Shown piece by piece: positions 9,096 through 11,274 of a stretch of 11,682 bases of DNA. This DNA comes from Allobaculum fili (lineage in GTDB: Bacteria > Bacillota_I > Bacilli_A > Erysipelotrichales > Erysipelotrichaceae), in NCBI RefSeq assembly GCF_020969955.1, contig NZ_JAHDSX010000060.1:1-11682 (forward strand), written 5' to 3'. The notes beneath the pieces are model-generated. The model had not been told where the DNA came from and did not search any database. It saw only the letters and a program-made list of their open reading frames with translations. The position numbers and the translations under genes were made by a program. The first letter of the stretch is position 1. Each line of letters opens with the position of its first letter.

Positions 9096-9647
9096 TCAAA
9101 TTTCGTAAAGGTGTCTGAATTTGATTGTTCGTTTCAGAGCCTTGTGAAGACTGTCTTTAGTAATCTTAAGCTCATTATTCACAACAGCTTTAACTAAATT
9201 TGGATATTCTTTTGGGTTCGCCTCAATCATTGAAATAGGACTTGAAGAACCATCTACGCCTTTTCCTTTATGATGAATCGGTCCAATAATGATATCCGAA
9301 TACTCATAATTAAGTTTTAGTTTGCCGTAATTAAATCTCTTGATTTCTTCATTAGTCACGAATTCAATCTGTCTGGGGTCAATTCCAACTTGAGAGGCAA
9401 TTTGATCAATTGCTTTTTTATCGAGGTGCGTAAATCCAATGATCATGACCTTGGCTGTATATCGATTGAAGATCCAGTCGTTTTGGGTTGTTTCTGTATC
9501 CTCATAAAAGCCAATCTTTTTTAGATAAGACTCAAGCCCTCCTGTTCGATTCTCCAGGAGAAGACGATCAGATACGTAGGAACAGACTTCATATGCCAGA
9601 TTGTCAAGGCCCTGTTTATCTAACGCCAAGAGACTCACCACCCTCAT
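9096..9647 (-). CDS. Hypothetical protein, downstream partner of the M-S fusion-like gene
   Basis: The open frame runs 9096-9671. Candidate starts are TTG 9671, ATG 9647 and TTG 9629; the last has a GAGGGTG SD-like run upstream. All of them overlap the end of the upstream gene (stop at 9616). The C-terminal half (KVMIIGF...YSDIIIGPIHHKGKG...LKITKDSLHKAL) has an alternating strand/helix pattern that reminds me of small Rossmann-like domains such as DUF2325. This is unverified. Confidence 0.6.
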   Translation of the reverse strand: MRVVSLLALDKQGLDNLAYEVCSYVSDRLLLENRTGGLESYLKKIGFYEDTETTQNDWIFNRYTAKVMIIGFTHLDKKAIDQIASQVGIDPRQIEFVTNEEIKRFNYGKLKLNYEYSDIIIGPIHHKGKGVDGSSSPISMIEANPKEYPNLVKAVVNNELKITKDSLHKALKRTIKFRHLYEI

Positions 9648-11274
9648 CAAAAAGAGAATCTCGTTTTGCAATAATTCTCTCTACCCGCTGTCTAGCTTCT
9701 TTCAGCCGGTCTTGAAGGATCTTATATCTGGCTCCCATGACTTTCTGCTGCTCCAGATCAAGTTTGGGAATTTCCATATTTTTAAGATCCGGGGTTGTAA
9801 TATTTTTTATAACAGAGCCTTTACTGATGGATTCCAATCTGTTTTTACCGTCGCTCGAAGTGAGGTAAGCCATCAAATACCGAGGATCAATTTTTTGAAG
9901 ATCGGGGCGGATAACAAGAAAGTTGCTGCTAGGAATCACATGCATTTCTCCAATACCTTCCATAAAAGCAATCTGTGGTGCGACCCCTTTGGAAAAGATC
10001 AGAATATCACCATCCATTAAATAAATATCATTTTGAGCTGAAGAATCTTCGCCGATTGTCTCCAATGCGGAGATATCAATCTGCTGATCACGCAGTGCCT
10101 TGGCTGTAAGAAGATAACAATCGCCTTCAGCATTCTCATTCATCTTAGCCAGATTTTTTCCTCTGAATACTTCAGCAACATCCTTAACACAGTATGTATT
10201 CTCAAAGTCTCTCAGACTAGTCTGAGTGTAGTAGCGCTGCGGATATAAAAGGGAGCTGTCAGCTTCTGCCTCTGCAACACTTAAATCGTTAAAGAGGGTC
10301 TCGTGATTACGAATCGTTGACTCTAATCCTTCCAGAAGCTCCTTCTGTTTCTGCAAACTCTTTTTTCGGCCAAGAGAAAAGATACTATTAAGATCACAGA
10401 TTTGAATCTTCGAATTCTCTTTTTTACTCAGAATAAGAAGCACAGGAGAAATAGAAGTATTAGGGAGGATTCCAGCAGGAAGCTGAATGACTTTTTCAAT
10501 AACGCTGCTCTTGATCAATGCATTGACGAACTTCTTTTCGGAGTTAGAGAAGAGGACAGAAGGCGTAGTGACCAAAGCGGCAATTCCATCTTTATCCAAT
10601 GAAATAAGAGCATCATTAACCAACTCAGCCTCGTACGACCGAACGTTGATTTCTTCACCATTAAAAGCGAGGATTGGTGTGCGCTCTACTCGTCTCATTC
10701 CAAATGGAAGTTCTCCAAGAACAAGATCAAATCGGCCTTTTTCTGTTTTATGATTCAAGCGATCGATTCTCACTTCGATGGGCAGGTTAAACACCCTGCT
10801 AACAATTTGCTGAAGCATGCAATGTCTGGGGTTCAGGTCTTCTGAAACAATTCTGGCAGTCGGGAAATCCTGCGCCGCTTTTGCAGTAATATTTCCACGA
10901 CACGAATTCATATTGAGGATTCGCAGCGGTTTTACATCCCCCTCAAAAAGTCGAATCAGATCAGGAAGAATCTTCAGACCGTTTCCGGGTTCCGTAGAAT
11001 CAGTAATCGAAAGAGCATTAATAATGGTACTCTTGATCCCTTCATAATCCAGATCCCGTAAAGCCTCTGTCCATAAAGAGACAGCCTCCTGATTAGCCCC
11101 GTCTACATTGATGTCGCTAATGTCTTTGTTTAATACATGGGCTGCTGCTACAGCCAGATTTAAAATTTCTTCACTTGATTTGACAGCGCTCAGCTCTTTC
11201 ATTGGAGATTCAACTTTTAAAATCTCCAGATCACTAGCAATTCTTTCTTTTGATGTCTTTACTTCTGTTGGCAA
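9616..11274 (-). CDS. HsdM-like methyltransferase-fold domain fused to a single HsdS-type TRD; catalytic and SAM motifs are non-canonical
   Basis: 552 aa with a TTG start and SD AGGAGG 7 nt upstream. Residues 97-290 align by eye with the window's HsdM: [30 protein letters not shown] against [46 protein letters not shown] aligns with [24 protein letters not shown] with DFVMANPPFN, and [24 protein letters not shown] is the usual post-motif-VIII strand. Residues 362-540 look like one HsdS TRD plus a conserved helix ([12 protein letters not shown]...NFLVIRP...YLMAYLTS...[23 protein letters not shown]). Confidence 0.85.
   Translation of the reverse strand: [552 protein letters not shown]

Follow-up and report, generated by a model that had tools for sequence, protein, structure and literature searches.

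A conserved gene pair with an HsdM-TRD fusion lies ahead of unrelated Type I restriction-modification families and may regulate or guard them

The gene pair and its surroundings

The window, that is, the whole stretch of 11,682 nucleotides from Allobaculum fili that was analysed, carries a two-gene cassette on its minus strand. The cassette consists of a gene for a 552-aa protein, here termed MS*, and a small partner gene; it adjoins a Type I restriction-modification (R-M) locus. The features are as follows.

11348-11363: distal operator-like palindrome AAGTTTATATAAACTT, 1 nt upstream of the putative -35 element
11318-11346, minus strand: putative weak sigma-70-type promoter between the two palindromic boxes
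11288-11303: proximal operator-like palindrome AAGTTTAAATAAACTT (minus-strand reading), abutting the Shine-Dalgarno sequence
11282-11287, minus strand: Shine-Dalgarno sequence AGGAGG, read from the sequence, 7 nt before the TTG start of MS*
9616-11274, minus strand: MS* gene, 552 aa, TTG start (from the list of open reading frames)
9096-9647, minus strand: gene of the small partner; 183 aa if started at ATG 9647, but TTG 9629 (177 aa) is the likelier start
8760-8776, minus strand: terminator-like hairpin CGGGCGTAACACGCCCG, then CTTTTCC, in the 644-bp spacer between cassette and hsdM
536-8452, minus strand: complete, phase-variable Type I R-M locus adjoining the cassette, its presumed functional partner
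6935-8452: hsdM of the R-M locus
6451-7014: hsdS fragment of the R-M locus
5837-6454, plus strand: inverted hsdS half of the R-M locus
4831-5871: integrase of the R-M locus
3677-4843: hsdS of the R-M locus
536-3625: hsdR of the R-M locus

Both minus-strand open reading frames (ORFs) that an earlier, sequence-only reading had proposed are present, one at 9616-11274 and the other, at its full extent of 191 aa, at 9096-9671. In public gene calls the small gene begins at ATG 9647; the N-termini within its family (MALxxxxL) make TTG 9629 the better start. The small gene overlaps the end of the MS* gene, stop codon included, by 32 nt or 14 nt, respectively. Pfam places N6_Mtase (residues 176-309, E = 2.5e-11) and Methylase_S (residues 360-526, E = 4.9e-10) in the 552-aa protein, which bears out its description as a fusion of an HsdM fold with an HsdS-type TRD. 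MS* thus joins an HsdM-like SAM-binding domain, a single HsdS-type TRD and a C-terminal helix in one chain; in place of a separate HsdS with two TRDs and two helices, there is a single Methylase_S match and one C-terminal helix. At NCBI, a near-identical A. fili protein that shares its 90%-identity cluster is named 'N-6 DNA methylase'. Among solved structures, EcoR124II HsdM and the half-HsdS dimer Esub1 (PDB 8VSQ) come closest, the latter being the closest solved relative of the TRD (profile E = 2e-27).

Searches of NCBIfam, PADLOC and PHROGs found no nuclease, helicase or ATPase in either protein, in line with the sequence-only reading; Pfam likewise showed no nuclease family in the pair, and no HTH domain was found in MS* or the small protein. 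HsdM_N gave no match in those MS* proteins that were scanned. Since, in addition, only one TRD is fused and motif IV is not canonical (see below), the layout is indeed neither standard Type I nor IIG or IIB. Matches to MAD2 and MAD5 of the MADS system were at domain level only and stayed below the cut-offs (MAD5: 43.5 bits versus 400 in NCBIfam).

In relatives, purifying selection acts on the two genes (dN/dS of about 0.04-0.37); these values come from more distant pairs with dS near saturation, substitutions within Allobaculum being too few. The Allobaculum ORFs of the pair are intact and nearly identical across many samples. In Allobaculum sp. Allo2 the MS* gene is broken up, and MS* copies are pseudogenised now and then.

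Two further elements of the sequence-only reading were not confirmed. An hsdM relic had been placed in the spacer at 8453-9095, for which blastx, Pfam, Rfam and plasmid searches returned no match, and an IS fragment at 126-329 finds little backing in a Transposase_mut match at E = 0.041.

The cassette is conserved ahead of unrelated Type I R-M families

The sequence-only reading had treated the pair as an independent system within a defence island and had left its co-occurrence in other genomes to a survey. We found the MS* gene directly upstream of the small gene in 14 of 14 distinct loci with a small-protein homologue, although in three contig-truncated copies the upstream gene is visible by its 3' end alone. 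The next gene downstream, on the same strand, was a Type I R-M gene in all 14 loci. Since this arrangement recurs in every locus, the cassette is more plausibly an accessory of Type I R-M than a system of its own. Together the loci cover a few hundred kb, most of it metagenomic, and all of them were reached via one protein family; the six-sequence alignment with which related loci were sought is biased toward YSDII[FIV]GP-type members. The hosts have Bacillota- or Mollicutes-like genomes.

The junction between the two cassette genes ranges from an 8-nt overlap to a 12-nt gap outside the window, and the genes are apparently translationally coupled. The gap to the first R-M gene measures 10-283 nt elsewhere and 644 nt in the window. 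All of hsdM, hsdS and hsdR are present in 11 loci; at L018, L025 and L031/L032 the contig end was reached or the R-M set was identified only in part. The R-M genes are ordered M-S-R or R-M-S, and HsdR belongs to differing families across the loci.

The two cassette proteins vary together. Among L013, L020 and L023 the small proteins share 71% and the MS* proteins 50-54% identity, and between L015 and L021 the values are 66% and 57%, with flanking HsdM and HsdR merely 24-30% identical in both sets. L019 and L028 have small proteins with 95% identity next to R-M systems that differ. Similarity among MS* proteins (E-values from 1e-24 to 0) also far exceeds that to the neighbouring HsdM or HsdS. 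The cassette is therefore a conserved, co-evolving unit that precedes unrelated Type I R-M families, and the co-occurrence of its two families extends well beyond the A. fili genome.

Several loci depart from this picture or add to it. L006 keeps the MS* gene and the palindromic boxes and is missing the flavodoxin-like partner. L013 lies within a conjugative element (ArdC, PrgI and VirB4/TraG-like genes). A ParE toxin gene follows the distant MS*-like protein P0004 at a distance of 10 nt. The 167-aa ORF after P0003, considered as a member of the small-protein family, does not belong to it; Pfam, PADLOC and the PDB gave no match for this ORF, and there is no small-gene remnant at that place.

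The small protein represents a new family

The sequence-only reading had assigned no motif to the small protein, and this assessment stands: neither Pfam, NCBIfam, PADLOC nor PHROGs returned a match, and the best E-value in a PDB profile search was 0.16. A Pfam scan of 68 family members likewise gave no recurrent or credible family. A word-indexed search with the small protein returned only itself, whereas an exhaustive phmmer search reached a family of 477 clusters at 50% identity. The homologues in the 14 loci were recognised at 25-41% identity. The family alignment shows an invariant H126 and conservation of G71, G122 and S136. Searches of viral contigs, of phage records and of plasmid records yielded no relatives. 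The domain also occurs in longer proteins of 350-420 aa; L030, the sole one whose context could be retrieved, has an unrelated gene upstream.

An AF2 model based on a 50-sequence alignment reached a pLDDT of 90.2, while the single-sequence prediction (pLDDT 40) was unusable. The modelled protein has a long N-terminal helix, followed by a flavodoxin-like alpha/beta domain, and we place the conserved residues, including the invariant histidine, at the C-terminal edge of the sheet. Foldseek with this predicted structure, which had been put forward as a check on the pair, gave no fold match in the PDB (best E = 7.5e-3, TM at most 0.32) or in BFVD (E = 2.3e-2). The small protein thus belongs to a new family. 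It has neither a toxin-like nor a nuclease-like signature and no transmembrane segment or membrane-helix-like stretch.

Several identities were considered and rejected. The top Foldseek matches (RadA, CheY, PurE, primase) are generic Rossmann-like or flavodoxin-like noise, and because nothing rose above that level, TIR, Toprim, PD-(D/E)xK and receiver-domain assignments were dismissed. The sequence ELKITK does not qualify as a nuclease 'ExK' motif, as its glutamate is not conserved in the family. A suspected likeness to DUF2325 received no support from the Pfam scans of the 68 members.

Paired palindromes flank the cassette promoter

The sequence-only reading had given the cassette its own Shine-Dalgarno sequence, paired palindromic operators and downstream terminators. 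The AGGAGG ahead of the TTG start is in place, and the 16-bp palindrome AAGTTTAWWTAAACTT occurs in two copies, at 11288-11303 and 11348-11363; none of 200 shuffled sequences contained two matches. As to terminators, one hairpin lies on the right strand (8776-8760), about 320 nt past the stop codon, and the plural found no support.

Between the boxes, a -35 element TTGAAT (11346-11341) and a -10 element CAGAAT (11323-11318) are separated by a 17-nt spacer. This putative promoter falls below the threshold of the promoter scan and was recognised by analogy with the TTGACA/TATAAT promoters of other loci, which are clear between the boxes of L013, L020, L023, L031 and others. Across the family, the first box abuts the -35 element (TTGACA in other loci) and the second abuts the Shine-Dalgarno sequence. 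Both boxes are present in the window and in L006, L013, L019, L020, L025, L026, L028, L031 and L033; L014 and L018 have the second copy at the annotated start codon, L017 and L021 have a looser pair, and L023 was truncated in this survey. In most loci the full-length boxes are found nowhere else, and their sequence tracks the cassette clade. No boxes were found near the R-M genes themselves, which have an extended -10 promoter ahead of them in many loci.

The boxes look like bipartite Type I-style sites (for example RGTT-N6-AACY or ATCT-N6-AGAT), with adenines in each half-site. MS* is likely the protein that binds them, because L006 has retained MS* and the boxes without the small protein, and the cassette is probably autoregulated. 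The idea of a sequence-specific DNA reader, put forward in the sequence-only reading, gains support from paired palindromes at the cassette's own promoter throughout the family.

MS* retains SAM-binding motifs and departs from the canonical motif IV

MS* proteins keep the glycine of motif I and the acidic residue of motif II, and the SAM-binding motifs X, I and II are conserved among members that are just 20-30% identical. In the window, motif II reads SEDLN, motif I has N replacing D, and motif IV is ELPF. The other motif IV sequences of the 15 MS* proteins compared are DYPW (twice), NPPL, NFPF, NFPW, NQPF, NYPW, NMPF, EFPW (twice), NYPL, DHPL, FPPF and DAPF. Mean pairwise identity is highest in the TRD (35%), followed by the methylase domain (30%), the C-terminal helix (25%), the linker (21%) and the N-terminus (19%). 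Neighbouring HsdS proteins, by comparison, share 20-31% identity even where their HsdMs share 46-59%. A copying of the MS* TRD from that of the neighbouring HsdS was considered and rejected (best E-value about 1e-4, 21-25% identity). The conservation of the SAM motifs suits an active enzyme equally well.

MS* could be catalytically active and place m6A at a fixed palindromic site, its homodimer corresponding to M2S1 and the small protein acting as a subunit for assembly or regulation. We consider this rather unlikely. Motif IV follows a partly conserved [N/D/E]-x-P-[F/W/L] pattern, with N or D first in 11 of 15 proteins, proline third in all and an aromatic residue fourth in 12, and active Erm/KsgA adenine methyltransferases use N-[I/L]-P-Y; MS* may therefore be catalytic, and the SAM motifs and the adenines of the box half-sites fit in with it. 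An engineered EcoKI M-S fusion can function (PMC3510504), and half-size HsdS dimers are functional as well (PMC12418389). On the other hand, the canonical (N/D)PP(Y/F/W) occurs in none of the 15 MS* proteins, as opposed to NPP[FY] in all eight aligned neighbouring HsdMs; the stacking aromatic is leucine in three, and position 1 is glutamate in three, including the window, and phenylalanine in one. The TRD is the most conserved rather than a diversifying region, MS* shows no co-evolution with HsdR or HsdM, and the large N-terminal domain is poorly conserved and devoid of HsdM_N matches. Variants of this reading, in which MS* may provide a second specificity for the neighbouring HsdR or methylate the operators as an epigenetic switch, belong here as well.

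Discussion

Few bacterial defences are as common as Type I R-M, which phages and plasmids routinely disarm by means of DNA mimics and SAM-degrading enzymes. To our knowledge, the detection of such disarming is known in few systems (PrrC, PARIS, Ronin), nearly all of them from E. coli. We tentatively favour the view that the cassette is an autoregulated sensor/partner unit that guards or controls Type I R-M and is Ronin-like in concept. MS* would dimerise through its C-terminal helix in the fashion of half-HsdS proteins, and the TRDs of the dimer would read both palindromes and thereby repress their own operon. MS* would retain the surfaces with which a Type I methylase core binds DNA and SAM, and would not need to methylate. 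Because of this resemblance, anti-Type I agents, such as the DNA mimics Ocr and ArdA or SAM depletion, could strip MS* from its operators and its partner. Its loss would derepress the cassette and, by read-through where they are co-transcribed, the R-M genes; given the 644-bp spacer with its hairpin and the extended -10 promoters, such read-through would not be general. The freed small protein might then act as effector or signal, a role that is a guess, as the protein has no toxin or nuclease signature and no transmembrane segment. Somewhat less probable, and on balance unlikely, is the sharper version in which a non-methylating, SAM- and DNA-binding repressor-decoy is dislodged by phage anti-restriction and so releases or induces an effector with a new flavodoxin-like fold, which would make the cassette a widespread, undescribed guard class of low-GC bacteria. 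If true, this would be a second, mechanistically distinct case of bacterial decoy immunity and the first decoy that doubles as the repressor of its own operon.

Ronin was counted as the conceptual precedent for the guard reading. In this system (HsdS, HsdM and RonA; Silas et al.), HsdMS restrains a small toxin, RonA, which has 61 aa and a predicted membrane helix; Ocr, ArdA or Aop1 trigger cell death, with ArdA and Ocr releasing the toxin, the methylase activity is unnecessary and the upstream non-coding region is essential (bioRxiv 10.1101/2023.04.06.535777). By analogy, both systems would reuse a Type I methylase core as sensor or decoy with a tightly linked small gene and other restriction systems nearby. 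However, Ronin has a separate canonical HsdM (NPPF) and a full HsdS, whereas MS* is one chain that has just one TRD and departs from the canonical motif IV, and the description of RonA sets it apart from the partner of about 175 aa (177-183), modelled as flavodoxin-like, found here. Ronin hosts mostly lack hsdR, in contrast to a cassette that is always followed by a Type I R-M gene and by the full set in 11 loci, and Ronin comes from E. coli and its relatives rather than Bacillota- or Mollicutes-like genomes.

The structural precedent that was counted for the guard reading is Esub1, a half-HsdS homodimer joined by its C-terminal helices, which is a stand-alone 23-kDa protein encoded at a distance from R-M genes (PMC11754733). 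Half-size HsdS dimers, in which one TRD and one helix dimerise, mimic a full HsdS and read palindromic bipartite sites, share their layout with MS*; these truncated proteins work with a canonical HsdM, whereas in MS* the TRD is naturally fused to a divergent HsdM-like domain, and MS* has a dedicated small partner. PrrC/EcoprrI and RloC are accessory genes tied to Type I R-M and are thought to serve as a backup when phages inhibit restriction; their products are ABC-ATPase/anticodon-nuclease proteins restrained by the genuine R-M enzyme. The cassette is likewise an accessory tied genetically to a Type I R-M locus, but it shows neither a P-loop nor a nuclease signature and supplies a methylase-like protein of its own. 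Type IIG/IIB/IIH enzymes (MmeI, BpuSI, BcgI, AhdI) have a PD-(D/E)xK or Mrr nuclease and the canonical NPPY/F. They resemble MS* in that a gamma-class N6-adenine methylase precedes a Type I-like TRD, in one chain or as M+S with a partner; nuclease and NPPY/F are both absent from the cassette. Paired palindromic operators at the promoter, and the layout of autoregulation, are shared with C-protein R-M and type II toxin-antitoxin (TA) operons. C-protein systems use an HTH controller at C-boxes, while the cassette has no HTH or RHH, and the reader would be a TRD dimer. The guard reading was also credited with the ParE gene after P0004.

The operator layout lends itself to a further explanation, in which the cassette is a transcriptional controller or timer of the Type I operon with a C-protein-like role and the small protein as co-factor; the boxes would set cassette expression and, via read-through, that of the R-M genes, and restriction could be delayed in a new host. 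Paired operators flank the promoter in nearly all loci, the first R-M gene is only 10-34 nt away in L025, L018 and L006, gaps so short that co-transcription is forced, and the conjugative-element context of L013 would suit such a timer. We nevertheless regard this role as unlikely, since no boxes lie beside the R-M genes, many of which have separate extended -10 promoters, the window cassette is intact despite the spacer with its terminator-like hairpin, and a conserved SAM pocket and a conserved partner with an invariant histidine would both be superfluous in a simple repressor.

It is quite improbable that the cassette is a TA-like addiction module that stabilises the R-M island, with MS* as antitoxin, the small protein as toxin and no sensing of phages. 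The type II TA layout is there, with a first gene for an inferred DNA binder, an overlapping second gene and promoter palindromes, and both the ParE gene next to P0004 and the occasional pseudogenisation of MS* would fit. TA modules are promiscuous in location, however, which leaves the constant adjacency to Type I R-M in the examined loci unexplained; the small protein has no toxin signature, and we know of no precedent for an antitoxin of 550-610 aa with a conserved SAM pocket. That the pair is a decaying Type I/IIG relic, brought near a live R-M locus by chance or local duplication, is hardly conceivable: the degenerate ELPF, the altered motif I and the fragmented gene of Allo2 point that way, but the reading is effectively refuted by the conservation data, that is, 477 clusters, synteny in 14 of 14 loci, dN/dS well under 1, intact ORFs in many samples and MS* proteins mutually far closer than to neighbouring HsdM or HsdS.

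Literature searches turned up no account of Type I R-M preceded by an HsdM-TRD fusion and a small partner, and no library or paper searched assigns the pair to a characterised system, in keeping with its earlier ranking as a candidate for something undescribed. The cassette may be a new regulator or guard of Type I defences, tied to them irrespective of the R-M family in the loci examined. It thus offers a testable candidate guard or controller of restriction in gut and host-associated Bacillota, low-GC bacteria that are genetically hard to study and known mainly from metagenomes; with the predicted operator sequences at hand, biochemical tests are straightforward. MS* provides a natural methylase-like domain with a non-canonical catalytic motif that has apparently been repurposed as a sequence reader, and the partner a new small-protein fold family with, according to the model, a conserved histidine-containing pocket. 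Should MS* instead be an active methylase with a fixed site, this would bear on the interpretation of methylomes and on transformation barriers in these bacteria.

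The cassette comprises an MTase-TRD fusion and a small partner

Both overlapping genes of the sequence-only reading were found on the minus strand of the window, and the Shine-Dalgarno sequence and paired palindromic operators it had assigned to them were recovered as well:

9616-11274, minus strand: gene of MS*, the large protein with an HsdM-like domain fused to a single HsdS-type TRD (552-aa ORF, TTG start)
7 nt upstream of the MS* TTG start, minus strand: SD AGGAGG, read from the sequence
9096-9671, minus strand: small-gene ORF (191 aa), overlapping the 3' end of the MS* gene
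11348-11363: box1, distal palindrome, AAGTTTATATAAACTT
11288-11303: box2, proximal palindrome, AAGTTTAAATAAACTT

By Pfam, MS* contains N6_Mtase (residues 176-309) and Methylase_S (residues 360-526); the small protein has no Pfam match. A near-identical 552-aa protein, WP_230268386.1 (Allobaculum fili, Erysipelotrichaceae), shares the 90%-identity cluster of the window MS* and is named 'N-6 DNA methylase' by NCBI. As the sequence-only reading had stated, no nuclease, helicase or ATPase was detected in either protein with Pfam, NCBIfam, PADLOC or PHROGs, the last three adding HsdM, HsdS and MAD matches at domain level only, far under the cut-offs. In public gene calls the small gene begins at ATG 9647, yielding 183 aa. 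TTG 9629 (MALDKQGL, 177 aa, 14-nt overlap with the MS* gene) is the more likely start, as the N-termini of relatives read MALxxxxL.

The cassette co-occurs with diverse Type I R-M systems

Genomic contexts were retrieved for small-protein homologues 25-41% identical to the window protein, which gave 14 distinct, mostly metagenomic loci reached via this one protein family (window, L013, L014, L015-17, L018, L019/27, L020, L021/22, L023/24, L025, L028/29, L031, L032, L033). An N6_Mtase-TRD fusion of 552-616 aa lies directly upstream of the small gene in 14/14 of them, visible as its 3' end only in the contig-truncated copies L016, L022 and L032, so that the pairing extends well beyond this genome. 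Small gene and MS* gene either overlap or stand no more than 12 nt apart. Directly behind them, on the same strand, 14/14 loci likewise continue with a Type I R-M gene; hsdM, hsdS and hsdR were all seen in 11, and for L018, L025 and L031/L032 either the contig runs out or the set was identified in part. The cassette-to-R-M gap is 10-283 nt elsewhere compared to 644 nt in the window.

The R-M systems themselves vary in gene order (M-S-R or R-M-S) and in HsdR family (EcoEI_R_C type or T1R_D3/T1RH_C type). L013, L020 and L023 share 71% identity in the small protein and 50-54% in MS* but 24-30% in the flanking HsdM/HsdR; for L015 and L021 the values are 66%, 57% and 27-28%. Conversely, the window and L021 share 59% in HsdM but 36% in the small protein and 22% in MS*. 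These pairwise identities show that the cassette behaves as a co-evolving unit, apart from the unrelated R-M systems with which it is combined. Between L019 and L028 the small protein is 95% identical and the adjoining R-M systems differ, and MS* proteins match each other (E 1e-24 to 0) much more closely than they match adjoining HsdM or HsdS.

Searches of viral contigs and of phage and plasmid records gave no relatives. In L013 (1-9722), cassette and R-M genes lie beside conjugation genes (ArdC-like, PrgI, VirB4/TraG-like), and a PDC-S11 candidate defence gene (DUF4268, NucS-like) stands between the small gene and hsdM.

MS* deviates from working methylation and specificity subunits

Alignment shows a non-canonical motif IV in MS*. 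It reads ELPF in the window and DYPW, NPPL, NFPF, DYPW, NFPW, NQPF, NYPW, NMPF, EFPW, EFPW, NYPL, DHPL, FPPF and DAPF in the other 14 proteins, compared to NPP[FY] in 8/8 aligned adjoining HsdMs. Most MS* proteins have the TP of motif X, and motif I keeps its last glycine and motif II its acidic residue; as these are SAM-binding motifs, SAM binding is probably retained. Catalysis of methyl transfer appears doubtful from the motifs. N-[I/L]-P-Y occurs in active Erm/KsgA enzymes, and EPPL in the inactive METTL14.

By mean pairwise identity the TRD (35%) is the best-conserved region of MS*, ahead of the MTase domain (30%) and the N-terminus (19%), contrary to true specificity subunits: the adjoining HsdS proteins are only 20-31% identical, even where their HsdMs are 46-59% identical. 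Among solved structures, MS* comes closest to EcoR124II HsdM in its N-terminal half and to Esub1 (8VSQ) in the TRD and its helix. Esub1, a half-HsdS with a conserved face for DNA binding, homodimerizes via its C-terminal helices (PMC11754733). The kept SAM motifs would fit an active methylase of fixed specificity with a regulatory subunit, and the altered motif IV and the conserved TRD speak against it; we regard this reading as possible, if rather unlikely.

Several MS* copies are broken. L019 (8896-8898) and L027 carry an in-frame TGA at the motif IV Trp (EFP*), the gene in L015 (3250-4942) is split into 488 and 78 aa and intact in L017, and Allobaculum sp. Allo2 has fragments of 113 and 200 aa. 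These breaks may stem from assembly errors or from a burden imposed by the cassette.

The small protein belongs to a large family with a predicted flavodoxin-like fold

A word-indexed search with the small protein returned only itself; exhaustive phmmer recovered 477 cluster representatives at E<=1e-3, mostly of 165-195 aa. None of the 51 proteins returned by a profile search has a Pfam domain, and their sole name is 'hypothetical protein'. Individual Pfam scans of 68 members gave no credible or recurrent family, the profile reached at best E=0.16 against PDB sequences, and PADLOC and PHROGs gave no match. A few members are proteins of 250-420 aa with the domain at the C-terminus, among them P0030, P0074, P0093, P0143 and P0149 (350-420 aa) and L030 834-2102; the long N-terminal regions of the 350-420-aa members had no Pfam match among those scanned. 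P0030 apparently holds two copies of the domain, and in L030, the sole context retrieved for long members, the upstream gene is unrelated and MS* is absent.

AlphaFold2, given a 50-sequence alignment, yields a confident model (pLDDT 90.2, pTM 0.69) that opens with a long helix at residues 11-35 and a short one, followed by a four-stranded parallel beta/alpha domain of flavodoxin-like type. Conserved residues are G71 after strand 1, G122, P123, H126, K127, G130, S135 and S136 after strand 3, and P149, L160, K161, T163 and K164 around strand 4, with H126 invariant across all alignments. In the model these residues would sit at the C-terminal edge of the sheet, the usual ligand-binding place of flavodoxin-like folds.

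Paired palindromes precede the MS* gene

Two matches turned up in 0/200 shuffles, and most other loci carry two similar palindromes at equivalent positions. Box1 adjoins the -35 element, often a perfect TTGACA, and box2 is placed between the -10 element and the SD. The boxes of the other loci are:

L013, L020, L023, L031: TGGTTTTnnAAAACCA (L023 is truncated, with the proximal box alone visible)
L014, L033: ATGGTTAnnnAnAACCAT (in L014 the second box coincides with the annotated start codon)
L018: AAGTTTTnnAAAACTT (second box likewise at the annotated start codon)
L025: AAGTTTTAAAAAACCT and AAGTATTAAAAAACCT
L019, L026, L028: TAATCT-N6-AGATTA
L017, L021: looser GGGT...ACCC pair

Full-length boxes are confined to the region upstream of the MS* gene in most loci, and their type goes with the clade of the cassette rather than with the family of the R-M system. 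Many can be reduced to a 4 + N6 + 4 bipartite palindrome (RGTT-N6-AACY, ATCT-N6-AGAT), the format read by half-HsdS dimers (PMC12418389). Locus L006 encodes a true MS* (P0003) with a TRD 36-42% identical to the L013 group and retains both boxes as well as a Type I R-M system downstream; the flavodoxin-like partner is absent there and no remnant was found, which indicates that the boxes travel with MS*. As the sole recognisable DNA-reading domain of the cassette is in MS*, we infer that MS* binds the boxes.

In the P0003 loci (L006-L011), a gap of 223 nt separates the MS* gene from an unrelated 167-aa ORF with no family match, after which come hsdR, hsdM and hsdS, in this order, and a recombinase shufflon. 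The region immediately upstream encodes a Hachiman system (HamA plus a helicase) and an ISL3 transposase.

An extended -10 element (TGnTATAAT; CGATATAAT in L019) occurs in most spacers 3' of the small gene (L013, L019, L020, L021, L023, L028). Besides possible read-through from the cassette, a promoter of their own is therefore probable for the R-M genes. Boxes at the cassette promoter and R-M genes next in line would suit a C-protein-like controller of R-M expression; the cassette lacks the defining feature of C-protein control, and we consider this reading unlikely.

A candidate guard module derived from Type I systems

By their defining features, Type I methylase cores, Type IIG/IIB enzymes, MADS and Ronin, in which the partner differs, do not accommodate the cassette, in line with the non-standard layout noted in the sequence-only reading. 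Nor was a description found in PADLOC-DB (2023), NCBIfam (2026), Pfam, PHROGs or the literature searched, so the pair was not placed in any characterised system. We file it with Type I-derived accessory or guard modules.

Our tentatively favoured model is that MS* acts as an autoregulating sensor of anti-Type I agents together with its small partner. (MS*)2 would sit on the boxes and thereby autoregulate the operon, and would restrain or work with the small protein. By imitating the M2S core, (MS*)2 could sense agents that disable Type I systems, namely DNA mimics or SAM loss, and the cassette would then be derepressed, would let its partner go, or would do both. Ronin, a decoy system of HsdS, HsdM and RonA, sets a precedent for the concept: there HsdMS holds back a small toxin that ArdA, Ocr or Aop1 frees, methyl transfer being dispensable (bioRxiv 10.1101/2023.04.06.535777). 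A single case adds a hint in support of this sensor model: L012 (1630-3814) encodes P0004, a distant MS*-like protein of 619 aa with DAPF as motif IV, and a ParE-family toxin gene comes 10 nt after it. No obvious antitoxin or Type I R-M system was seen nearby, and the palindrome AGGTATGTGAATACCT lies upstream.

A TA-like addiction module, in which the small protein would be the putative toxin, is improbable; in operon layout the cassette corresponds to type II TA modules. A relic is barely conceivable, both genes being under purifying selection (dN/dS about 0.04-0.37, dS near saturation).

Surroundings of the cassette in the window

A complete, phase-variable Type I R-M locus makes up the remainder of the window, with flanking features:

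126-329, minus strand: 67-aa ORF
3677-4843, minus strand: full hsdS
4831-5871, minus strand: tyrosine recombinase
5837-6454, plus strand: inverted half-hsdS
6451-7014, minus strand: hsdS fragment, overlapping the hsdM end
8453-9095: non-coding spacer, 644 bp between cassette and hsdM
11579-11682, minus strand: C-terminal end of the upstream gene

Judged by gene arrangement, 3677-7014 is a specificity shufflon with the layout of phase-variable Type I systems. Several inverted repeats lie within the 644-bp spacer, along with a terminator-like hairpin (8776-8760). The hsdM relic proposed there (a 46-aa ORF ending in ELHRSIWAIAEGLRCIFQ) gained no support: Rfam, blastx, Pfam and plasmid comparisons gave no match across 8453-9095. 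As for the proposed IS fragment, the 67-aa ORF resembles the N-terminus of Mutator/IS256-type transposases and is probably such a fragment, the match being weak (Pfam E=0.041). The upstream gene encodes, in L001, a 335-aa protein with a MORN-repeat match, which ends in KRKRGRPRKNPTV and has an AT-hook-like look.
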